Positions 2,803 through 14,589 of a DNA stretch of 64,000 bases are shown here, in pieces. Position 1 is the first letter of the stretch, and the number at the start of each line of letters is the position of its first letter. The position numbers were made by a program, and so were the translations under genes. The notes beneath the pieces are model-generated. The model saw nothing but the letters and a program-made list of their open reading frames with translations. It did no database searches and had not been told where the DNA came from. Origin of the DNA: an uncultured virus (IMG/VR IMGVR_UViG_3300031823_000005) (lineage: Duplodnaviria > Heunggongvirae > Uroviricota > Caudoviricetes); the IMG/VR virus record IMGVR_UViG_3300031823_000005. One strand, given 5' to 3'.

Positions 2803-3735
2803 ATGGGGAGCGGTCGTTTCGACAACGTATCATACACATCAGCACGCAACACCAGGGCGAGTAAAGGAGAAGATGATTTTCAATACTCCAAAACCTCAAC
2901 CATAGGCACAGGCGTTCACTCCAACCTCAATCCACGCCGGATCAAAACAAAACCGTTCAAGAAACTCGAAAGCCGGGACAGCGCCGAGCATCCAAAATCA
3001 AACGCCGTCTTCGTCTCCATCGACGTAACCGGATCGAACATTTCACGCGCACAGGAAGTCCAGAAAAAACTTCCCAACCTGATGGAAATGCTTCAGTCCT
3101 ACCTGAGCGATCCTCAACTTCTCATCGCCGCAAACGATGACTTTAACGTTGAAGGACGCCGATCAATCCAAATCTCTGACTTCGAGTCAGACAACCGGAT
3201 TGACGATCACATTCGAAATATCCTGCTCACCAGCAACGGCGGCGGGAACGACGGAGAGTCTTACGATCTGATTCTCTTGGCGGCAGCACACATGACCGTG
3301 CTCGATTGCCTGGAGAAACGCGGTCGAAAAGGCTACTTCTTCATGTACGCCGACGAACCAATTTTCTCCCATGTCAAAGCCGATGAAGTACGAGAAATTT
3401 TTGACATCGACACCGAGGGGCGCCTACCAGTCAGCGCCGTAATCGAAAAACTCAAAGAGCAGTACCACGTCTTTGTGATCTGGCCAATGGGCGGCTATCG
3501 ACACGCCCGCGAACAGTACGAACACCTATTTGGAAAAGAATGTGTTGTGCAACTCCAACAGCCGATACTTTTCTGCGAACTCATTGGTTCGCTCATCGGA
3601 ATCACCGAAAAGAAACTGAAGCCAACCAACGTCGTCAAAGATCTGGTCAAGGTTGGAACCAGTTCAAATGATGCCGACGAGGTTCTCAACGCGATCACTC
3701 CATACCTCAAACACCGGGAGGCTACCGGAGCGTGA
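2803..3735 (+). CDS. VWA-like (MIDAS) domain protein
   Basis: DVTGS MIDAS-like motif, GGGNDGESY motif, F-x-YADE; strong AGGAGG RBS. Confidence 0.7.
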   Translation: MGSGRFDNVSYTSARNTRASKGEDDFQYSKTSTIGTGVHSNLNPRRIKTKPFKKLESRDSAEHPKSNAVFVSIDVTGSNISRAQEVQKKLPNLMEMLQSYLSDPQLLIAANDDFNVEGRRSIQISDFESDNRIDDHIRNILLTSNGGGNDGESYDLILLAAAHMTVLDCLEKRGRKGYFFMYADEPIFSHVKADEVREIFDIDTEGRLPVSAVIEKLKEQYHVFVIWPMGGYRHAREQYEHLFGKECVVQLQQPILFCELIGSLIGITEKKLKPTNVVKDLVKVGTSSNDADEVLNAITPYLKHREATGA

Positions 3736-4892
3736 GAACAGCGCACATAGTGGCCGGCTTAGCGTATGGCGACGAAGGAAAAGGATCGACAGTAGATTTC
3801 TTAGTCCGCCAACGTCAGGCCGGCCTCGTTGTCCGTTACAACGGCGGAAGTCAGGCAGGACACAATGTTGTCCTGTCTGACGGCCGTCACCACTGTTTTG
3901 CTCAATTCGGCAGCGGGACATTCGTCCCTGGAGTCCGAACGCACCTCTCACGATTCATGCTGGTCAACCCTCTGAACATGAAATTGGAATATGAAGCCCT
4001 AAAAAACAATGGGATTTACGATGCTTACAATCGTCTTTCGATCGACGGCAAATGCCTGATCGTCACACCCTTCCACCGCGCCATCAACCGAATGATCGAA
4101 CAATTCCGCGGTAACGCTCACCACGGTAGTTGCGGCCAAGGGATAGGACAATGCCGTTTTGAACACCTGAAACACGGAGAGAAAGTTCTATTCGCTGAGG
4201 ACCTACTTGACGAAACCAAAACAAAAACAAAACTGAAATTTATCCTTTCGGAGATGAAAAAGACCTCTGACTTCATCACCAAGACAAACCCATTCATCCC
4301 GAAAGACGAATTTATCGAAGCCGGCAATGCCGCCATTGATCTCATCTGGAGCTTGTATAACGAATGGCCAGCCAAGATCGTGAAACCTACCCACCTCCAA
4401 TACCTCCTCAACCAAACAAACGATACAGTCTTCGAGGGAGCCCAAGGCGTCTTACTGGACGAACATCACGGATCGGCCCCTCACAACACCTGGACAAATA
4501 CCACTTTCGAAAACGCTTTAACTCTCCTCGGAGAGAACAATTTCGAAGGCGATATCCATAAAATTGGCGTGCTCCGAACTTACTTCACACGCCACGGCGC
4601 CGGCCCATTCAAAACAGAAGACGAATCTCTCAAACCTCTCCTCCCAGAGCCACACAACGACGATATTGGCTTTCAGGGAACCTTCCGCGTGGGATACATG
4701 GACTACACCGCCGTCAACTACGCTATAAAGGTCTGTAAGGGCGTCGACGGAATCGCGTTAAACCACCTCGACATCGTTGGAGCAACTGCCCAGGGGCGCA
4801 ACGTGAAGAAGATCGAGACCATCACCAACACCCCGGTTTGGATCGAAGGGTACGGTCCTACCGCCAACGATCGCCATTGGAGGAAGAAGTGA
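3732..4892 (+). CDS. purA: adenylosuccinate synthetase-like protein (divergent PurA family)
   Basis: GDEGKG, RYNGGSQAGH, FEGAQG and TRHGAGPF motifs; GTGA overlap with the VWA gene. Confidence 0.85.
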   Translation: MRTAHIVAGLAYGDEGKGSTVDFLVRQRQAGLVVRYNGGSQAGHNVVLSDGRHHCFAQFGSGTFVPGVRTHLSRFMLVNPLNMKLEYEALKNNGIYDAYNRLSIDGKCLIVTPFHRAINRMIEQFRGNAHHGSCGQGIGQCRFEHLKHGEKVLFAEDLLDETKTKTKLKFILSEMKKTSDFITKTNPFIPKDEFIEAGNAAIDLIWSLYNEWPAKIVKPTHLQYLLNQTNDTVFEGAQGVLLDEHHGSAPHNTWTNTTFENALTLLGENNFEGDIHKIGVLRTYFTRHGAGPFKTEDESLKPLLPEPHNDDIGFQGTFRVGYMDYTAVNYAIKVCKGVDGIALNHLDIVGATAQGRNVKKIETITNTPVWIEGYGPTANDRHWRKK

Positions 4893-5099
4893 AAATCAAG
4901 ATCGCAATTCTCCTCTCTTGCGCTTTCCTGTTCGGTATCAGCGGCGGAGCAGACGGCTGCTACAAAGAAAAACTCCATCGGGAACTGATTAAAAAACACT
5001 GGAAAGAATTGGAAAAGCAACTGTCACACCAAGAGATTTTCGATCCCACCAAAGAGATCATTAAGCACGCCTAAATAACACCTTCCCAATTGGGACGAT

Positions 5100-5131
5100 A
5101 GGGCCGGTTTTTATACCGGCCCTTCTCTTTT
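5100..5131 (+). terminator. intrinsic terminator
   Basis: GGGCCGGT-TTTTAT-ACCGGCCC hairpin followed by TTCTCTTTT. Confidence 0.75.
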
Positions 5132-5146
5132 GCATTGATAACCCGC

Positions 5147-5183
5147 TTGACAAATCTTAACTGCAAGCGATACGCTTGCTGTT
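5147..5183 (+). promoter_or_regulatory. sigma70-type promoter with overlapping palindromic operator
   Basis: TTGACA (5147)-18 nt-TACGCT (5171); inverted repeat GCAAGCG-ATA-CGCTTGC at 5163-5179. Confidence 0.6.
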
Positions 5184-5280
5184 GAAAACGCGGGAGTGAA
5201 GCCGGCACTGGTAACTGTCCACTAATAGCCACCGGGATTAAGTTCAATATGGATGCCCGCGATAAACCAAAGGAGGCTTC

Positions 5281-5631
5281 ATGGATATTGGATCACGACT
5301 GAGGCAACTCAGGGAAATGAAGAAGTTTTCCCAAGGGGAGGTTGAAAAACGAACCGGGCTCTTGCGTTGCTACACCTCGCGCGTAGAGAACGGACATACC
5401 ATCCCCGCGCTGGAAACCCTTCAGAAATACGCCAACGCCTTCGAAGTCCAGTTGTATCAACTCTTCATCGAAGACGGCGCCAAGGCCCAACCACTCATTC
5501 CACCTAACCCGAAGACACCACTCTCCAAACATCAACTGAACGTTCTGAAACAAATCGCCAGCTTCTTGCCAAAACTGGATGATCGCAGTATTAAACTCCT
5601 GCTTTCCACGGCAAAACAGATGACGAAGTAA
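5281..5631 (+). CDS. XRE-family HTH transcriptional regulator
   Basis: RLRQLRE..KFSQGEVEKRTGLLRCYTSRVENGHTIP HTH_3 signature; AGGAGG RBS. Confidence 0.9.
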   Translation: MDIGSRLRQLREMKKFSQGEVEKRTGLLRCYTSRVENGHTIPALETLQKYANAFEVQLYQLFIEDGAKAQPLIPPNPKTPLSKHQLNVLKQIASFLPKLDDRSIKLLLSTAKQMTK

Positions 5632-5667
5632 CCGGGCCAAATCCAAAACAAAGCGAGAAAAAAAAGA

Positions 5668-5919
5668 ATGTCACAAAAAGATATCGTTTCAACGTCAGAC
5701 ATGATGCGAGCCTTGGAAGATGAAATCGAACTCGTCAAAAGCGGAAAGATCACAGAAGCCGTAGGACGAGTCGTTTTCCGTGGCCGCGCACTTCAGATTC
5801 AAACCGCTTCCCTAAACCTCCAGTACAAACGGATGCTCCAGGGGAAGAAGCCAACCCAGGAAATGAAATTCATCGAAAACAAAGAACCGGACAAACCGGA
5901 AGAACCGAAAAAAGACTGA
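5668..5919 (+). CDS. small hypothetical protein directly upstream of array 1
   Basis: 83-aa ORF; its TGA stop abuts the first GCGGC of the array. Confidence 0.6.
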   Translation: MSQKDIVSTSDMMRALEDEIELVKSGKITEAVGRVVFRGRALQIQTASLNLQYKRMLQGKKPTQEMKFIENKEPDKPEEPKKD

Positions 5920-6673
5920 GCGGCGAACCACTACATGATCGGATTCGATTTGATAAGGTGACACAAAATGAAGCGGCGAGACGGTTCACAACAAAACAAA
6001 ACGACGCGGCTCAACTTGTCCCTTTTATCTCTCGACAATCCACGATCCAGCGGCGGCACATGCACAGGACAACACTCAGACGACGCGCGACAAGGCGGCG
6101 GCACATGCACAAGACAACGCGCGATGTGATGCGACAACGCCGCGACTTGACGCGGCGGCAAGACAGCGCAACACAGCTTCTTACTAAGCGGCGGGACTAT
6201 TCTTTACTGGATATGACTAGGCGGCAAGACAGAACAAAGCCGTGTGCAACGGGGCGGCGATCCGGAGCACCATCAACCGATACGAGACCACACAGAGCGG
6301 CCCGACATATTTCGACAGGACTATACGGCACATCACAGGACTAGGCGGCAAGACAACGTGGGACTGGACCAAACACAACTCGACTGGACGCAGCGGCATG
6401 ATTCGACCGCCACACGAACGCGATTGCACTCGGCGCAGCGGCATGACCGGGCGAGGTGACACCTTACGGTACGGCACGAGACTACGCGGCAAGCCCAGAC
6501 ACTACGTAGCGGCTCGACCTCTCAGATCAAGACCGTTTTTGACCTGACAGGGCGGCATAACCTGATAGCACTTGATCTCTACAGGGCGGCGGGATTAGTC
6601 CAATCATGCACCCTAGCGGCAGGCCCAGACGCTACTTAACATCACATCACCAGACTTAGCGGCAAAACTGAAC
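5920..6673 (+). repeat. pentamer-module array 1 (putative guide-RNA array): 19 GCGGC delimiters separating runs of NN-(G/C/A/T)AY pentamers
   Basis: GCGGC at 5920, 5973, 6006, 6050, 6095, 6155, 6188, 6221, 6254, 6297, 6345, 6393, 6438, 6486, 6509, 6552, 6586, 6616, 6659; 12 of 18 spacings are 5n+3; example GCGGC-AAGAC-AACGT-GGGAC-TGGAC-CAAAC-ACAAC-TCGAC-TGGAC-GCA-GCGGC. Confidence 0.9.
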
Positions 6674-6719
6674 ACATGAAGTAGAAATAAAAATCTAAAA
6701 AGAAAAGAGAACAAAAACC

Positions 6720-7577
6720 ATGGCTGTAAAAGAATTAAAGTTTCAGGACCTACGAAGTATTTATGATTCAATGACCTCAAGTATTCGTTGCGACTGTGTT
6801 GTTTCCACTAAACTTGTCGGTGGACTCCCCGCAGATCGTAAAGCTCTCACCGCTTTTGCAGAGCACCATTTAAAAATCACTGATCCAATTGAACGAGAAG
6901 CCGCTGTAAATCGAATCCTCCGCGAAGAAATTGGCGAAAAAGACGTCACTCCGGAAACCGGTGAAATTAAAGAAAAAACGGTTTATGGAGTCAACGTAGT
7001 GCGGCATGACGAACATGGCCGACCATTTCTAGGAAATTGGATGGTGAAAGCATGTTTAAAACAAGCAGCCAGCCGCGTTGGGCTCTTCACCGAAACCAGA
7101 GGCACCAAGGGAAACATGAGCGAAGCCGGCAGCGTAAGCGCGATCGGCCAGAGCCTCCTCGATCCGGAGCACCCGGAAATCATCTACCTCATCAACAAAG
7201 ACGGATCCGGACCTGCCAAGACCTACTTTGAAGAATTTATGGGGCGGGTTCAAAGTCCGCAAGGACCTGTCTCAATCATCCACCACTCGGAATGCGTGGA
7301 ACCGGGCTCGAGATTTTCTTTCGAGTTTCAGTTTCTCCGCGGAGGGCTGGATGAAGATGCCATCGAGAAAACCGCAGCCATGGCCATGATTTGTGGACTC
7401 GGAAGTATTCGATCGTTGGAGTGTGGCAAGTTTCGTATCGAACGTTGTGTTGTCGATCTAAAGGAAAAAGCGAAGAAGCCTGAAAAACCACCAAAGGAAA
7501 AGAAGGACGCCGCTAAAACAGAGGCTCCTCCTATGACCCCTGGTGAAAACATGCAAGCTTCGCCTATTCGTCACTGA
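6720..7577 (+). CDS. solitary RAMP / Cas7-like RNA-binding protein
   Basis: RAMP hallmarks: N-terminal strand plus LVGGLP, GRPFLGNWMVKACLKQAA (equivalent to G.P.I.GS.lKG.lR), ECVEPGSRFSFEF, C-terminal Gly-rich loop CGLGSIRSLECGKF. Confidence 0.8.
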   Translation: MAVKELKFQDLRSIYDSMTSSIRCDCVVSTKLVGGLPADRKALTAFAEHHLKITDPIEREAAVNRILREEIGEKDVTPETGEIKEKTVYGVNVVRHDEHGRPFLGNWMVKACLKQAASRVGLFTETRGTKGNMSEAGSVSAIGQSLLDPEHPEIIYLINKDGSGPAKTYFEEFMGRVQSPQGPVSIIHHSECVEPGSRFSFEFQFLRGGLDEDAIEKTAAMAMICGLGSIRSLECGKFRIERCVVDLKEKAKKPEKPPKEKKDAAKTEAPPMTPGENMQASPIRH

Positions 7578-8612
7578 GCGGCGAAACACTGCGCGATATT
7601 CACAAAAACACGACGTAGCGGCTTGACTTGACTTGCTTGTACTGAACGACACAAAACAAAACGATTACAAAGCGGCATGACTCGATCAATTCCGTTACGA
7701 CATCACTGCAACCGGACATAGCGGCTGGCCCACACTACACCCGGCATAGACAGGGTACGACTTAGCGGCACGGCTGAACAAAATTAAATTAGACGCGATC
7801 CCACATGGCGGCATAACTAGACAGGATCGTATCGAACACTATTCAGCGGCCCCATATGACCCGCTTACGATTCGGCATGACAAGACGGAGCGGCTTGACA
7901 CAACGGGACTTTACTTGGCGGCAAAACCTCACCTCACAGAGCCTCGCAAAATGGAGCGGCACGATTTGATTTCGCGTCGCGAGATTTGACAGTACGGGAC
8001 TCAGCGGCAACACATCACAAGATGACCATCAGACGAGACCAGACAAGGCGGCGTGACATCACGCGACTACTTGCGACTAGACGTAGCGGCTGGACTGGAC
8101 GAATCTTCTTCAGACGCGACAAACACCGAGCGGCTGCACATGGCACGGCAGGATTGGATCCGATAACACTCGATTGAGCGGCACAGTTCAATCAAACTGA
8201 ACAGAACAGAGCGGCGCAATCAGATTGGACCAAATCTGAACGGAGCGGCAGAATGTAGCCCCACAAGTCCCCACGAAGCGGCATAACTCAATGAAACGTA
8301 GCGGCATGACGAAATGAAACCTGACGTGGAAAAACTAATACATTGCGGCATGACGCGGTTCAGTACCTTGAAACTCAATCTAACGTGGCGGCGTAACAAG
8401 ACGGGACATAACATGATCGAGCGGCGGGACTGGTCGTAACTGCACACCGTCAGAGCGGCGGGACTGAAACGTGATTGGACACCGCTGCACGCTGCGGCGA
8501 GATCAGACGGGACATAACTTAACCGAATTCAGCGGCACGACTCCATTTGTCAGTACGGCACTTGGCGTAACTTAACGTGGCGGCAAAAAGAAACTAGACG
8601 CAGCGGCAAGAC
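7578..8612 (+). repeat. pentamer-module array 2 (putative guide-RNA array): 27 GCGGC delimiters
   Basis: GCGGC at 7578, 7618, 7672, 7721, 7765, 7808, 7846, 7890, 7918, 7956, 8004, 8048, 8086, 8130, 8178, 8211, 8245, 8278, 8301, 8345, 8388, 8421, 8455, 8494, 8532, 8580, 8603; 15 of 26 spacings are 5n+3 and 10 are 5n+4. Confidence 0.9.
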
Positions 8613-8618
8613 GGAGCC

Positions 8619-9620
8619 TTGGACGACCATTGGAACCGAATCAAAACCGATTACATGGCACCGCGGTTCAAGGATGGGGACTTCGCCGGGGGGATGATTG
8701 CCACACTCAATCAACTTTCAAGCCGGCTAGCAGCCTCCAAAGACGAAGGATTGCACCCTAAAACCACTACCAATATCACACAGGAGGCTCCTACGGACCT
8801 TTCTTGGGTTTGGGGGCTTCTGATATTCGGAACCCTGATTCTCGGGATCTGGGCGATCTGGAAGCTGTTTGTCTCTAAAACGGCCAAAAAGGAAAAAATC
8901 TCCACATCGCAATCCAACGCCATATCCCAGAGAAACCAAGCCGCTCAAAAGCTTCGAAAGCTTCAGAGCGATATCGAAGACGTAAAAGCAACCAATACAC
9001 AAACAGACAGAGATATCGCTATAATCCAAGCCACTGTGGATTCAGCAAGCGAAGTATTCTCTGACCTTTCGAAATCAATTAAAGGAGATCCCAATACTCC
9101 TAATCTTCTTTTTTGGGAATACGACAACATAGCTGGACAGTACCAAACCGTTTGCGCCCAACTCGACCAAGCCAGCAAAGAACTCTACTTACTCACACAT
9201 CCATTCACAAACCCAGGATCTCAGGCGCAGGCGCAACCTGGAACCGCTGGAATTTCTTCCGGATCCACACAAAACCAAATTAAGCACAAAAGACATGTTT
9301 CAAGATCAAGAGATCGGGACGTCGCCAGATCTACAGGGGTAAACAATACTGTGATTACTGGTGGAGGCTTCCCTGTTCCTGTTTTCATTCCAGAACCGGA
9401 ACCAATTTACGAAGCTCCCACTCCAACACGCGATCCGGACCCAACCCCTGAACCAGATCCAGAACCTTCCGGAGGATCCTCAGACTACGGTAGCGGTGGG
9501 GGAGATTCCGGTGGCGACTCGAGCGGCGGCGGTAGTAGTGATTTCGGAGGAGGAGATTCAGGAGGGGGTGACTCAGGAGGAGGTGGCGGAGATTCTGGCG
9601 GCGGTAGCAGTGATTTCTAA
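8619..9620 (+). pseudogene. 5'-truncated TPM (DUF477)-domain membrane protein with Gly/Ser/Asp-rich tail
   Basis: Begins with the TPM C-terminal helix motif (MAPRFKDGDFAGGM), then a TM helix and GGGDSGGG tail; no signal peptide or TPM core; in-frame TAG at 8595 lies inside the array. It may still be translated. Confidence 0.55.
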
Positions 9621-9646
9621 AATCTAAAATCGAAGGAGAAAATAAA

Positions 9647-10306
9647 ATGGCAACATTTTTACAAAAAGTACGACTCGTAACACTCGGCAGCGTCCATGAT
9701 CTTCTGGACAAAGCCATCGACGCAAACTCTCCAAGTGCTTTGCGTCAATACGTTCGAGACCTGGAAGACGCACTCGACCGTATGAAGACCGAAGCAGCAG
9801 TACAGGCCGGCCAAGTTCGCACTTTGTTCCGTGAACAAGCAGACCTGGAAAGCCGTATCGAAACAACCAAGGCAACTGCCAAAAAGCTCGTGGACAGCGG
9901 ACATCCGGACCTCGCGCGTCCAAAGGCCACGGATATCCTTCGGATGCAAGAAGAATTGAAATGTACATCCGCAAACCTCGTAACCCAACAAGAGACCTCA
10001 AAGAAGATCGATATCGCGGTTGGTCAGCTTGAGTCCAAACACGAACAGATCGTCTTTCGCGTACGTGAACTGGAACGCCTCGATCGTGACAGTAAAGCCA
10101 AAGAAGCGGCGGCAACATCCCTGGCAGCGGCCGGCAGGCTCATCGGTGGAGGTACGGACATCTCCATTGACGACATCCAAAGCAAAATGCTGTCCAGAAA
10201 CGATGCCGCCTCAGAAAAGTTCGATCGAGCAGTTGGCGACGTCAAACAACCAATCGATCCAGAGCAGGAAGCTAAGGTTGACGATCTGCTAGCTTCGCTG
10301 AAATAA
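9647..10306 (+). CDS. PspA/IM30-family coiled-coil protein
   Basis: HDLLDKAID..SP.ALRQYVRDLED motif, long coiled coil, VDDLLASLK end; AAGGAG RBS. Confidence 0.8.
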   Translation: MATFLQKVRLVTLGSVHDLLDKAIDANSPSALRQYVRDLEDALDRMKTEAAVQAGQVRTLFREQADLESRIETTKATAKKLVDSGHPDLARPKATDILRMQEELKCTSANLVTQQETSKKIDIAVGQLESKHEQIVFRVRELERLDRDSKAKEAAATSLAAAGRLIGGGTDISIDDIQSKMLSRNDAASEKFDRAVGDVKQPIDPEQEAKVDDLLASLK

Positions 10307-10308
10307 AA

Positions 10309-10500
10309 ATGAAAGTGAGTAGTTGGCTCCGACAGTACCAACTGACCGGCGAGGTACCAGAAGGCGAGAACGCTGAATTCGCCTTCTGGTGCGGCTGGCT
10401 GATCGCCCATGCAGGAAGAGCATCACAAACAGCCACCACGTTTGACGAACAAAGATCCATGGCCATCAAAGCCGCCGAATTCATCGAGGAGCAAAAATGA
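10309..10500 (+). CDS. hypothetical protein
   Basis: packed ORF with ATGA coupling to the next gene. Confidence 0.5.
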   Translation: MKVSSWLRQYQLTGEVPEGENAEFAFWCGWLIAHAGRASQTATTFDEQRSMAIKAAEFIEEQK

Positions 10501-10736
10501 AAATCAAATATCAAACACAAACAGTCAGACAAGTGGAGTACTGCTGTAAGGATATGGAACAAGCAGAAACAGGAAAAGCGATCGTATTTCCAATTGAACC
10601 AACCAGAGAACTATCAACACCGTGGATATTTGGACCTCACAATTCCAAACTAGGCGGCGCTGGCAGGCCATTCGCAATAAAATTTTGTCCGTTTTGCGGG
10701 GAACGCATCACGTTTAGTCAGGAAATTAAACAATGA
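10497..10736 (+). CDS. small Cys-rich phage protein
   Basis: YCC...FCPFCG motifs. Confidence 0.6.
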   Translation: MKIKYQTQTVRQVEYCCKDMEQAETGKAIVFPIEPTRELSTPWIFGPHNSKLGGAGRPFAIKFCPFCGERITFSQEIKQ

Positions 10737-11173
10737 ACCGTATTTTCGTGGATATGGACGGAGTGATCGTAGATTTCGATTCCTACAAAGACAAACACGC
10801 ACTAACAGGGGAAGATACGAAACGCCGGCAGGGAGCTTACTTGGAAATGGAACCGATCCCAGGCGCACTCGAGGCTGTCCACAGTCTCATTGGTATGGGA
10901 TTCGAAGTTTGGATAGCTACAAAACCACCAACAGGAGTAGTGTTCGCGTACGCCGACAAAGCAGCATGGGTTATCAAACACCTTCCAGAACTCAAACGCC
11001 GGATCATTATCACACACGACAAAGGGTTACTTGGAGAAGAAGGAGACTTTCTAATTGACGATCGTCCCCACAAAGCAAACTGTGAAAAATTTCATGGGAC
11101 ACTTCTTCACTTTAGTAAAAACATGCAATGGCCCGAGATGCTAAATTTCTTTAGAAAAATAAAACGTATTTGA
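10733..11173 (+). CDS. HAD-family 5'(3')-deoxyribonucleotidase (NT5C-like)
   Basis: IFVDMDGVIVDF motif I, LIDDRP motif IV. Confidence 0.85.
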   Translation: MNRIFVDMDGVIVDFDSYKDKHALTGEDTKRRQGAYLEMEPIPGALEAVHSLIGMGFEVWIATKPPTGVVFAYADKAAWVIKHLPELKRRIIITHDKGLLGEEGDFLIDDRPHKANCEKFHGTLLHFSKNMQWPEMLNFFRKIKRI

Positions 11174-11214
11174 ACAGAACAATAGAATCATTGAACTACT
11201 GGAGCGTATCGCCA

Positions 11215-12960
11215 ATGTCAAAAATCATCATCGGAAACTCAAACGGAAAACCAATCGGGTTCGACCTTAAAATCCTGATCCTCACCCGCCTCCTCATCCA
11301 AGCCAACTCTGGAGGCGGAAAATCCTGGCTCATCCGCGTGCTCTGTGAACAGATCTTTGGCAAGATCCAAATCATTATCGTGGATCCTGAAGGGGAATTC
11401 TCTACCCTGCGCGAGAAATTCGATTTCGTCCTCGTTTCAAAGGACGGCGACACGCCAGCAGACACCCGATCAGCCGCAATGCTGGCCACCAGACTCCTAG
11501 AGCTAAACGCCAGCGCCGTATGCGACCTGTACGAGATGAAAACGGCCGACAGGCACCTTTGGGTCAAACTCTTCCTAGAATCGCTCATAAACGCTCCCAA
11601 GAAGCTCTGGCACCCCGTAATCGTGATCGTGGACGAAGCCCACATCTTCTGCCCAGAAAAGGGTTTTGGGGAGTCAGAAGCCTCCGAAGCCATGATTGCC
11701 CTGACCACCAGGGGAAGGAAGAGAGGATTTTGCGCTGTCTTCGCCACCCAACGCCTCGCAAAGCTAGACAAAAACGCGGCCGCGGAGCTTATGAACGTCC
11801 TTGTCGGGCAAACCTTCATCGACGTCGACATTAAACGAGCTCTCCTGGCCATGGGTATATCAGCAGACGATAAAGCAGAATTCATCCGGCAACTGAAAAC
11901 CATGGATCCTGGAAACTTCTTCGCTTTCGGACGAGCTATCACCAAGGAACGTCTACTCGTCTCAATTGGGAAGGTGCAAACCACCCACCCCGAGGGAGGC
12001 GGAAAGAAGTACGCGGCCGCTCCTCCCCCGGCGCCCAAGAACATTAAAGCTCTCCTCCCAAGCCTTTCGGATCTTCCAAAGGAAGCAGAGACCAAAGCCA
12101 AGACCGAGGCGGAACTACGCACAGAGATTCGATCGCTAAAAGGGATGCTCAACGCGCGGCCGACAGCGCCAAAAGAAGTTCAGGTCACTGATATTCAAGC
12201 AACCCAAAAAGCAGTCGAAAATGTCCGTAAGTTCTATGACGAACAGTTAAAACAAGCAGAAACTTTCGTCACACGCATCGAACGCAATATCAAATCAATC
12301 TCCACAGTCGTAAACGACATCGAACTGCTAATTGTTGGTAAACCTGAATTTAAAACCTACAAAGCAGGAAAACTAATTCCGGCCGGGAAAACCACAGACA
12401 GAGGAGAGCTTCGCGCGGTGCCACTTTCTACCGCTAGACAGGCGGTGCCGCAACCGTCTCCCCGGCCGGAACCTTCTCCAAACGGTGACATTAAGCTAGC
12501 ATCCGGAGCCCGTCGACTCCTGGCTGCTCTGGTCTCTTGGTTCCCACAGGGGATGAAGGAAGGACAATGGCGATTGCACGCCGGCCTGAAAAAGAGTGGG
12601 ACCGCGGACACCTACAAATCAGCCCTCAAGACTGCCGGGTTCACCGAACAACGCGACGGAATGTTCTTCGCCACGCAAGCCGGCGTCGACTACATCGGGG
12701 ACAAAATTGAAAGCGCACCAACAACCACCGAGGAAGTCTTGAAACTTTGGGAACCAAAACTTCCTTCCGGAGCCCGTAGGATCCTGAAAGTCCTGGTCGA
12801 TGCAGCCGGGGAACCTGTTAGTCAAGAAGAGATCACTGAAAAGACTGGTTTACAGAAATCCGGAACGTTCGATACCTATATCAGTGCTTTGCGAACCGCC
12901 CAACTCGCTAACAAAAAAGACGGACAGTACTACGCGAACCGTGAGACACTGTTTTTGTAA
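11215..12960 (+). CDS. HerA/DUF87-like P-loop ATPase with C-terminal duplicated winged-HTH-like region
   Basis: ANSGGGKS Walker A, DPEGE, VIVDEAH Walker B, RGRKRG...ATQR; repeated LxSGARR.L...KSGT.DTY.SAL; GGAG RBS. Confidence 0.85.
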   Translation: MSKIIIGNSNGKPIGFDLKILILTRLLIQANSGGGKSWLIRVLCEQIFGKIQIIIVDPEGEFSTLREKFDFVLVSKDGDTPADTRSAAMLATRLLELNASAVCDLYEMKTADRHLWVKLFLESLINAPKKLWHPVIVIVDEAHIFCPEKGFGESEASEAMIALTTRGRKRGFCAVFATQRLAKLDKNAAAELMNVLVGQTFIDVDIKRALLAMGISADDKAEFIRQLKTMDPGNFFAFGRAITKERLLVSIGKVQTTHPEGGGKKYAAAPPPAPKNIKALLPSLSDLPKEAETKAKTEAELRTEIRSLKGMLNARPTAPKEVQVTDIQATQKAVENVRKFYDEQLKQAETFVTRIERNIKSISTVVNDIELLIVGKPEFKTYKAGKLIPAGKTTDRGELRAVPLSTARQAVPQPSPRPEPSPNGDIKLASGARRLLAALVSWFPQGMKEGQWRLHAGLKKSGTADTYKSALKTAGFTEQRDGMFFATQAGVDYIGDKIESAPTTTEEVLKLWEPKLPSGARRILKVLVDAAGEPVSQEEITEKTGLQKSGTFDTYISALRTAQLANKKDGQYYANRETLFL

Positions 12961-12966
12961 CACCAA

Positions 12967-13040
12967 GCGGCACGGCAAGACGGCCTCGCTCAAGACCGAT
13001 TCCACACTGAGCGGCAAACTACAACACAACACAGAAACAC
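12967..13040 (+). repeat. mini pentamer-module array 3 (2 units)
   Basis: GCGGC-ACGGC-AAGAC-GGCCT-CGCTC-AAGAC...CTGA-GCGGC-AAACT-ACAAC-ACAAC-ACAGA-AACAC; same grammar as arrays 1 and 2. Confidence 0.7.
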
Positions 13041-13070
13041 GAAGGGCCGGGAGATTAATCCCGGCCCTTC
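13041..13070. terminator. hairpin between convergent operons (probable terminator)
   Basis: perfect 12-bp stem GAAGGGCCGGGA-GATTAA-TCCCGGCCCTTC; weak U-tract. Confidence 0.65.
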
Positions 13071-13190
13071 CTTATGTGGGAACGTCATTTGGGTGATGGA
13101 GACCTTCCCTGAACAACATCCGCGTTATCGTACGCGCTTCTCTGCGCCTTCTGCCTTCAACTTAAACAGAGAAGACCTTAACGGGCCAAA

Positions 13191-13250
13191 CTAGCGGCCT
13201 TTCTTGCCGCGATGACGCTTGCGGTTTTTTACTTCGATGGATCCGAACAT
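13191..13250 (-). CDS. 19-aa basic micro-peptide (MFGSIEVKNRKRHRGKKGR)
   Basis: AGGAGG 10 nt upstream of ATG. Confidence 0.45.
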   Translation of the reverse strand: MFGSIEVKNRKRHRGKKGR

Positions 13251-13302
13251 TTGGGTTAGTCCTCCTCTTCTTCTTCCCCTTCTGGGGTTGGCTTAGAATC
13301 CG

Positions 13303-13830
13303 CTACGCGGCCTTCCTTCGACCGTCTCGCCACATTAGCTTTGCAGACTCACTACGAGTACGCATCCTCTGACCACATTCAGAAAGCCCTTTTTGAAGGG
13401 CTTCTTGGCTAATGTGAAATCTCTTTTTAACTTCTTCCATCGAAACACCAGTCAAATACAATCTCGCCGCTTTTCTGCGCTGTTCCTTGGTAGCTGCTAC
13501 TCGCCACTCTCTTTCACTTATCTCCTGCAACGCTCGAGCGGCAGAAACTTGTTTAACAATCAAAAACTGATTCACAGCTTCCAAGAATCTCTTTACCGTC
13601 TCATGTTTAAAAGATGAAAGAACATGAGTGTTTTTCAATCTCCGCACAGGATAAAGATTTAATTTAACTCCCTCAGAAAGACAAAAAGCCTGTATCTTTC
13701 TCAAAACCAAATGACCATTATTATCTGTTTGCGCTACGGAAACATACGCACGGAACCCATGACCTTTCCTTGGCGTAAACCCAACAGTCCCTTCGCCATC
13801 AAAAAATCCAGCCACATAAGACCAATTCAC
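13303..13830 (-). CDS. LAGLIDADG homing endonuclease-like protein with C-terminal HTH
   Basis: WSYVAGFFDGEG motif, FLIVKQ. Confidence 0.8.
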   Translation of the reverse strand: MNWSYVAGFFDGEGTVGFTPRKGHGFRAYVSVAQTDNNGHLVLRKIQAFCLSEGVKLNLYPVRRLKNTHVLSSFKHETVKRFLEAVNQFLIVKQVSAARALQEISEREWRVAATKEQRRKAARLYLTGVSMEEVKKRFHISQEALQKGLSECGQRMRTRSESAKLMWRDGRRKAA

Positions 13831-14219
13831 TTATCTTCCTCCTCTAAAAGAGGATACTCCTTACTGTCTTTTGTGAAAAAATCACAAACATAACCAGGGT
13901 TAACGCTCTCATCCTCACCTGAAGGTCTAAAAATCTCACAGACCGTACGTCGATCACCACCACCCTGAGTAAAAAAATGAAAGCATAATTTACACTTTTC
14001 TTCACCCTCTGCTTCTCGATAATTCACTTCCTCCTGACTAAACTTCTCCGGTCTGTCAGAAAGAAGCTCCTCGTACTCGGGGAAAGAAACGCGGCCCTCG
14101 GGGGAAGAGCCGCGTTTCCGGGGTACATCATCGGGGGTATTCCGAAAAATTTCATGAGCGACAAGTTTCCCGCTCTTCTTCTCAGTTTCAACCGGAGGCG
14201 GATCTAACCCTCTTGGCAC
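13827..14219 (-). CDS. hypothetical protein with HiPIP-like four-Cys domain
   Basis: NY...CKLCFHF...CEIF...VNPGYVCDFF. Confidence 0.55.
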   Translation of the reverse strand: MPRGLDPPPVETEKKSGKLVAHEIFRNTPDDVPRKRGSSPEGRVSFPEYEELLSDRPEKFSQEEVNYREAEGEEKCKLCFHFFTQGGGDRRTVCEIFRPSGEDESVNPGYVCDFFTKDSKEYPLLEEEDK

Positions 14220-14271
14220 GTCCCAATTGTTATGAAATCAGGAGAATTCAGTCAAGCAAAAGTTCCTAAAG

Positions 14272-14589
14272 CTAACCCCTGGCATGCTTCTTGTAAAAGA
14301 CGTTGCTCCTCTTACCTTTAGCACCAGAATTATTCAAATCATGGAGAGGACCGGGAAGAATTAGAAGATGAAAATCCTGATCACATTCCGGATTACCGCA
14401 CAAATGATCAACCTCAAAATCCGGAGTCAGTGTTCTCCCACTGGCTGCCATACACTTTCGCGCCTTAACCCGGTGTGCATACTGATGGCGATCGGGACCT
14501 TGTGTGATCCTCACGTACCTTCTTTCGGTAATCGTGAAACCAAGACCTCGACGTTTCCCTTTTGGAGGAAAATTAATCGTTGTTGCCAT
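14272..14589 (-). CDS. HNH-like endonuclease
   Basis: YAHRV...EVDHLCGNPEC...HL. Confidence 0.6.
   Translation of the reverse strand: MATTINFPPKGKRRGLGFTITERRYVRITQGPDRHQYAHRVKARKCMAASGRTLTPDFEVDHLCGNPECDQDFHLLILPGPLHDLNNSGAKGKRSNVFYKKHARG

Follow-up and report, generated by a model that had tools for sequence, protein, structure and literature searches.

Directly behind its HerA-family ATPase gene, an uncultured soil phage carries what is probably a solitary guide: one unit in the five-base grammar of the phage's own VIPR-like arrays, closed by a boundary, trailed by an A-rich linker and ended by a strong hairpin. We come down, slightly, in favour of a lone and partly degenerate VIPR-type guide RNA that is likely directed against the HerA-like gene in rival phages. 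The safer part is the presence of a guide at 12967–13010, a candidate lone cassette that we regard with good confidence; that it is aimed at rival HerA genes is, judged from decoded sequence, about an even call. The window's unit by itself is weak, and the stronger support at the sequence level is the replication of its whole layout in a second VIPR-positive phage, G034.

The window is the whole stretch of DNA analysed; it covers the opening 64 kb of a virus record 74.9 kb long, from a soil metagenome run. A contig from run X1 covers 9833–14500 with zero differences; it probably comes from the source sample, so it is not an independent copy. The relevant features of the window are:

5668–5919, plus strand: 83-aa gene that relatives also keep upstream of their RAMP gene; a candidate vap-like accessory gene
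5920–6680, plus strand: array 1, with 19 GCGGC boundaries and GGC/NAY-NN steps
6616–6658, plus strand: last complete unit of array 1, decoding to the helix-1 motif of relatives' RAMP genes
6720–7577, plus strand: stand-alone RAMP gene of predicted Cas7/Csm3 fold (Vipr-like effector), 285 aa
7578–8640, plus strand: array 2, with 27 GCGGC boundaries
8619–11173, plus strand: TPM-domain, PspA, two small ORFs and NT5C genes, co-oriented, from array 2 to HerA
11170–12960, plus strand: HerA/DUF87-family ATPase gene (PF01935), stop codon at 12958–12960, adjoining the lone unit
11707–11730, plus strand: the phage's own copy of the HerA motif TRGRKRGF, a 10/16 match to the decoded unit
12967–13010, plus strand: complete lone guide-like unit (GCGGC, seven steps and a final NN; eight variable pairs)
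13010–13015, plus strand: closing boundary AGCGGC
13016–13040, plus strand: A-rich linker of 25 nt, called a second unit by the first-pass annotation; resembles array ends
13041–13070, no strand assigned: perfect 12-bp stem with a 6-nt loop, likely a bidirectional terminator, between convergent genes
13303–13830, minus strand: LAGLIDADG/HNH-like endonuclease gene beyond the hairpin, convergent

Some observations hint at a host and do no more than that: an XRE regulator gene at 5281–5631 is presumably of a type found in Acidobacteria, and one homologue of the window's HerA is named from a Candidatus Acidiferrum genome. The HerA proteins nearest to the window's are 69–71% identical to it.

The predicted structure of the RAMP protein has a mean pLDDT of 90, and its best Foldseek matches in the PDB are Cas7-group subunits of Cmr and Csm complexes (E ~1e-7). 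The protein falls in no Pfam or PHROG family and has no match among cultured-phage records. No cas families were found among 25 neighbouring proteins scanned, which places the gene outside a CRISPR-cas locus. Its closest relatives, 76–82% identical, are on contigs of 2–7 kb, and the RAMP loci compared here are without a close relative.

Each array unit consists of GCGGC, steps of two variable bases plus a pyrimidine-ended triplet, two further variable bases, a purine and the next GCGGC. The triplets are mostly GAC, AAC, CAC, GAT and TAC; units mostly hold 5–7 pairs, and no tail separates them. Beside the relatives' RAMP genes the same grammar recurs in 308 units at 22 loci, 235 of the 308 having length 5n+3. 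Arrays often start on, or just past, a stop codon, and in several relatives the 83-aa gene sometimes has arrays on both sides. Some RAMP relatives (L045:9679–10935, L046–L048, L083) have no GCGGC arrays and show a five-base periodicity that is weak and in part lies on the other strand; their scaffold may be a different one. Rfam has no matches within 4900–14000, and direct repeats with contiguous spacers, as in a CRISPR mini-array, are absent from the element studied here.

The first-pass annotation described the element as two GCGGC-led units running straight into a hairpin. Its positions are borne out: GCGGC stands at 12967, 6 nt past the HerA stop, and again at 13011, about 4.3 kb separates the element from the end of array 2, and a 12-bp hairpin does end it. 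The count and the contact have to be revised: only the first unit is complete, and the linker intervenes before the hairpin. The complete unit is on the strand of the arrays, 5.4 kb from the RAMP gene, and its pairs read AC AA GG CG AA CG CC/CA TG. Every step is NN plus a triplet, all seven end in a pyrimidine, and two nucleotides and an A follow. One step is 6 nt long, as in many array units, and three of the triplets are non-canonical. The 10-mer ACTGAGCGGC occurs only at this unit's closing boundary and at the first boundary of both arrays. The supposed second unit at 13011 was rejected as open, low-scoring (open score 2.6) and A-rich; it is like an array end, and on the minus strand it doubles as the U-rich tail of a terminator. 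A-rich stretches as strong follow 4 of 39 last boundaries, a set that includes some false array ends, versus 1 of 428 internal ones.

The same layout was sought in 15 further records scanned nearly whole, nine of them array-bearing and six HerA-bearing controls. The scan gave two isolated high-scoring units (scores 26 and 16), both in G034:

L130:9175–9295 (G034:48975), plus strand: lone 12-pair unit and hairpin, the clearest example found
L132:14280–14358 (G034:93920), minus strand: lone 7-pair unit, with a hairpin nearly identical to the window's

Both share the window's layout of a closing GCRGC, an AAA-led linker and a strong hairpin, and they lie 17 and 26 kb from the RAMP gene, antisense to neighbouring genes. 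Across 16 records (~1.4 Mb) there are nine isolated closed units scoring at least −1; AAA after the closing boundary combined with a hairpin of at least −19 kcal strength is found in three of the nine, namely both G034 units and the window's.

Both G034 units also resemble the gene next to them. Unit G034:48975 matches its own neighbouring gene, about 400 nt away, at 21/24 bases, and matches five IMG/VR contigs (two distinct sequences) at 24/24, in a search that used the first 20 letters of the guide only. All five 24/24 sites lie in a 73–74% identical homologue of that neighbouring gene, which appears capsid-like (SU10_MCP-like by predicted structure). Unit G034:93920 matches its own adjacent Ku gene at 13/14, about 140 nt away. 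TG-n-TAnnnT words can be seen by eye upstream of both G034 units; a promoter scan flagged no promoter-like site for any of the three lone units, the window's included. In IMG/VR, one lone-unit pattern returned only G034:93920. A second returned ten stretches, of which four are array-borne and six background; eight of the ten were inspected, and the remaining two lie in records with already known arrays.

Arrays, too, can stand apart from the effector gene. G007 has a large array with GCAGC boundaries (L099:2996–4417, at ~40.0–41.4 kb) about 40 kb from its RAMP gene, and that gene is without an adjacent array, beside what by eye are apparent tRNA genes. G035, a 256-kb provirus record estimated at 70% complete, has a short array of about five units (L106/L218, ~119 kb) and no RAMP match, making it a candidate orphan array.

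Targets of other units in this clade indicate how the guides would be read. An array unit of G034 (L103, G034:67685, minus strand), the last before the RAMP gene, matches the helix-1 motif MVQACIKQA of the phage's own RAMP gene at 18/18 and other RAMP genes at 16/18. This suggests possible autoregulation rather than an attack on rivals, and because of the perfect self-match, self-avoidance is not general. In the window, unit 6616 matches the RAMP genes of five distinct relative sequences at 15/16 with the wobble base skipped, versus 14/16 for its own RAMP gene (7035–7057). The same unit also has a 16/16 site in G005 (L148, near 5189) that is indistinguishable from chance. Among 158 units in nine records, self-genome matches with E<0.05 number four under the 1-nt rule versus two, two and none under other skips; this bulk enrichment is weak because most targets are absent from the DNA compared, and most array units have no identifiable target. 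The self-matches of window units 5920 and 8532 (E ~0.1 each) were not taken as real, the latter being out of frame in RecA. The in-phase matches (18/18, 24/24 and 15/16) show, as far as sequence can, that the 1-nt-skip code holds for the GAC/NN clade.

Read on the coding strand with this code, the lone unit spells T[KN]GR[KN]R[P or H/Q][C/W]. The motif TRGRKRGF of the adjacent HerA is conserved across 120 homologues, five of which fit the decoded unit at 6/8 positions (TKGRKRGF twice, TNGRKRGF, TDGRKRQF and TRGRKRQF). At the amino acid level, this family fit is matched by 18 of 2000 random guides; in a second test, 8 of 1500 random guides, 3 of 1000 permuted guides and none of 66 real units did as well. 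As a positive control, the fit of unit 6616 to the RAMP family was matched by none of 2000; neither of two negative controls reached significance. Nine of the phage's 79 own proteins also fit the decoded unit at 5/8 positions. The HerA fit is best read as P ~0.02–0.07, since the resemblance was first seen by eye and between two and eight neighbouring genes could have been tested.

The fit is unconvincing at the DNA level. The motifs of 25 viral HerA genes score 9–12/16, with a maximum of 12/16 and only about one above the phage's own copy. At both arginine positions where the unit reads CG, the resident HerA uses AGR, which makes up about one quarter of this phage's arginine codons; 21 of the 25 viral motifs use CGN at both. 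Synonymous swaps of this kind also explain a single mismatch apiece for the capsid, Ku and RAMP genes, a pattern that is no more than suggestive. An exact-pattern scan of IMG/VR with the lone unit gave 17 scattered hits, mostly out of codon phase and none in HerA; an in-phase exact match in a terminase-like ORF (L120) was set aside as within chance. A narrower HerA-type pattern was over-constrained and gave no matches. A local search of 1.0–2.6 Mb of DNA found nothing above 14/16 or 15/17 and favoured no skip length. No convincing DNA target was thus found for the lone unit in the sequences searched.

These results leave some room for a genuine lone guide cassette whose target is not HerA, or for a decayed relic that no longer works, a reading we consider unlikely and yet the first to be weighed. 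The three non-canonical triplets, the 6-nt step and a score of −0.5, versus 16 and 26 for the G034 units, would suit a relic. A guide with some other target would be in the company of the array units that match nothing identifiable, and its best HerA DNA match is only 12/16. Against this reading, the HerA family fit beats random guides, and both G034 units point at the gene that adjoins them.

How far the unit exceeds chance depends on the background chosen. With a model trained only on relatives, it ranks first as a closed unit among 236 GCGGC sites that lie outside the arrays; its score compares with an array median near 12 and lies in the bottom tenth of array units. That score is attained in 8 of 60 genome-size simulations, so it is not significant genome-wide, and its boundary-free score of 17.1 is attained in 17 of 25. 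The first-pass annotation had stated that similar motifs at chance frequency in other intergenic regions would speak against a guide here. The unit is the top segment among 26 intergenic gaps, equalled in 41 of 1000 intergenic shuffles, or in 2 of 1000 when two boundaries are required.

No other perfect stem in the 74.9-kb record is as strong as the hairpin at 13041–13070 (−25.9 kcal). The arms of this hairpin resemble those of the one that follows G034:93920 and of a guide-less hairpin at 5100–5123. Upstream of the latter, at 2803–4892, are a 310-aa gene without a Pfam family and an adenylosuccinate-synthetase-like gene, which end at it. We considered the hairpin as a guide-specific tail and rejected this; because a like hairpin at 5100–5123 has no unit and the hairpin of G034:48975 is different, we treat it as a terminator.

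Chance would make the element an ordinary bidirectional terminator with an A-rich flank, preceded by two accidental GCGGC words, an improbable account. It draws on the genome-wide simulations, on the other 15 records, which hold six background closed units with comparable scores, on the unit-free hairpin at 5100–5123 and on the U tail, which explains the A-rich part. It sits poorly with the rank of the unit among the 26 intergenic gaps and the two-boundary shuffles, with its orientation on the arrays' strand, with the junction 10-mer common only to array starts, and with the layout of two unambiguous lone units.

The first-pass annotation further proposed that guides are released from the 3' end of the same transcript, and that the PspA, nucleotidase and HerA genes lie inside the system's operon or were inserted into a once-continuous array. 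Of the first proposal, a guide is likely and read-through from the HerA cluster plausible, as far as gene order indicates. The genes are tightly packed from array 2 through HerA, and from 5123 to 13041 the scan flagged nothing like a plus-strand terminator, so the lone unit may be co-transcribed. A 15-bp hairpin at 10354–10392 (−24 kcal, no U tail), inside a 63-aa ORF (10309–10500) in the PspA–NT5C interval, could interrupt or stabilize a long transcript.

The operon proposal fared worse. PspA, nucleotidase and HerA genes are absent from all 72 RAMP loci, of which 19 reach at least 6.3 kb downstream and some are duplicates; the TPM gene is absent from them too. A RAMP gene occurs in none of 26 HerA records (eight of them at least 90% complete), so the proposed co-occurrence of HerA and RAMP genes fails, and no arrays were found near HerA homologues. 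One of the nine array-bearing records has a HerA gene, as a C-terminal piece only, 62 kb from its RAMP gene. On co-occurrence, HerA, PspA and NT5C were rejected as accessory genes, and by their distribution among sequenced loci these three and the TPM gene are cargo, not components of the system.

It is very unlikely, then, that the unit once ended a continuous array into which the TPM, PspA, NT5C and HerA genes were inserted, or that these genes are accessory. In favour of such a reading, co-oriented genes often break up the arrays of this clade: L088 has four small ones separating the RAMP gene from the array, and the arrays of G034 number three. The linker also resembles array ends, and no terminator-like site was flagged on the plus strand from array 2 to the hairpin. 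Both the operon and the split-array readings go unsupported because HerA and RAMP do not co-occur and the genes are absent beside RAMP relatives. Nor is an insertion needed: lone units with the same tail arise in G034 far from arrays and the RAMP gene, and antisense to their neighbours.

Least probable of all is that the unit tunes the phage's own HerA by partial pairing: G034 offers precedents in the array unit matching its own RAMP gene at 18/18 and the lone unit matching its own Ku gene at 13/14, whereas dozens of chance sites in the genome match at least as well as the window's own HerA site, at 10/16.

The preferred reading, a worn guide against rival HerA genes, would work as follows. 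The starting point is the layout of unit, closing boundary, A-rich linker and hairpin, seen here and twice more in G034. Transcription reading through from the HerA cluster would end at the hairpin, and the guide would be cut or trimmed at its GCGGC boundaries. By the published mechanism, the Cas7-fold protein would then coat the RNA with one five-base step per subunit, with the NN pairs reading two DNA bases in three. In its first six pairs the guide spells T[KN]GR[KN]R, the motif conserved in the neighbouring ATPase family, so a rival HerA might be silenced while the resident copy escapes. The fit is poor in the final two pairs, which fall at and after the 6-nt step; perhaps the guide is worn or aimed at an unsampled allele.

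More broadly, it is possible, if rather doubtful, that VIPR-positive phages place single guides next to capsid, Ku, effector and ATPase genes of their own, each guide spelling the rival allele of that gene while the resident allele is recoded. If this is true, recoding would often proceed via six-fold codons (arginine AGR for CGN, leucine TTR for CTN), and a guide would move through mosaic phage genomes together with its immune allele, the two forming an allele-exclusion module. Such a module would be an RNA-guided analogue of the marker exclusion that free-standing homing endonucleases bring about. Adjacency may then also record how new guides are written from local sequence, and the window's unit would be the HerA case, seen in the course of its decay. 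Among the examples this unit is the weakest; its worth lies in having pointed to the clearer G034 units and in offering a putative worn six-pair guide.

The closest known system is VIPR. VIPR type II of Escherichia phage SUSP1 comprises a stand-alone RAMP gene, pentamer arrays and a 1-nt-skip code (bioRxiv 10.64898/2026.04.26.720920). The window shares with it a stand-alone phage RAMP gene flanked by pentamer-coded non-coding arrays, a pyrimidine at the third scaffold position, a skipped wobble base, the use of either strand and guides against rival vipr genes. It differs in its scaffold, mostly GAC, AAC, CAC or TAC instead of GGY, and in its units, which in this clade hold 4–10 pairs instead of 9–16 repeats and stand back to back at RGC|GGC with no structured 3' tail on each. 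As far as the available part of that report describes them, its ‘staggered’ arrays are the closest to those of the window. The RAMP protein aligns with SUSP1 Vipr only weakly and in the helix-1 region only (hhalign probability 2%, E 0.024). In the available text of the structural study, SUSP1 Vipr reads guanine through D177 and W178 and forms a pyrimidine pocket with M72 and R179 (10.64898/2026.04.26.720927). By eye, the window's G-loop CGLGSIR against CGVGDWR of SUSP1 replaces D177 and W178 with S and I and keeps R179 and M72; loss of the guanine readers with the pocket arginine kept fits a scaffold fixed only at its third position. The system probably works like VIPR: the predicted fold, the pentamer arrays and the code agree, and the canonical GGY scaffold and tail are not found.

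Solo or orphan vrRNAs are described, in the accessible portion of the report, as single guides acting in trans that match self less well than rivals, on VIPR-null phages or satellites with no Vipr, or one more than 20 kb away (bioRxiv 10.64898/2026.10.15.759431). Like them, the window's unit is a single guide in the cognate code that lies apart from the effector gene. Published solo vrRNAs, on that same portion, keep the GGY code and a pseudoknot tail, whereas our unit ends in a terminator-like hairpin, sits on a VIPR-positive phage and stands beside the gene family it apparently reads. At 5.4 kb it is nearer to the effector gene than the 20 kb of that definition, whereas G034:93920 (26 kb) and the G007 array (40 kb) lie farther away. 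The target criterion given there is an NN match of at least 80%; the window's unit fits HerA at the family level, the best HerA DNA reaches 12/16, and the 17 exact hits look like chance.

VIPR, solo guides and GAC/NN repeats are already published. The running text of the passages searched yielded no report of lone guides beside a targeted gene family, and the available text of the VIPR papers gives no account of guide acquisition or of the reasons for guide placement. A lone guide next to the gene family that it reads would be a direct handle on both acquisition and placement. GAC/NN and CAC/NN arrays beside Vipr-like folds have been reported from motif and fold (bioRxiv 10.64898/2026.10.21.760802). 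Beyond what the available text of that report contains, decoded targets here support the code and lone units were found; the 24/24 match to a rival shows the 1-nt-skip code to hold for a GAC/NN clade as well, which widens the range of usable scaffolds.
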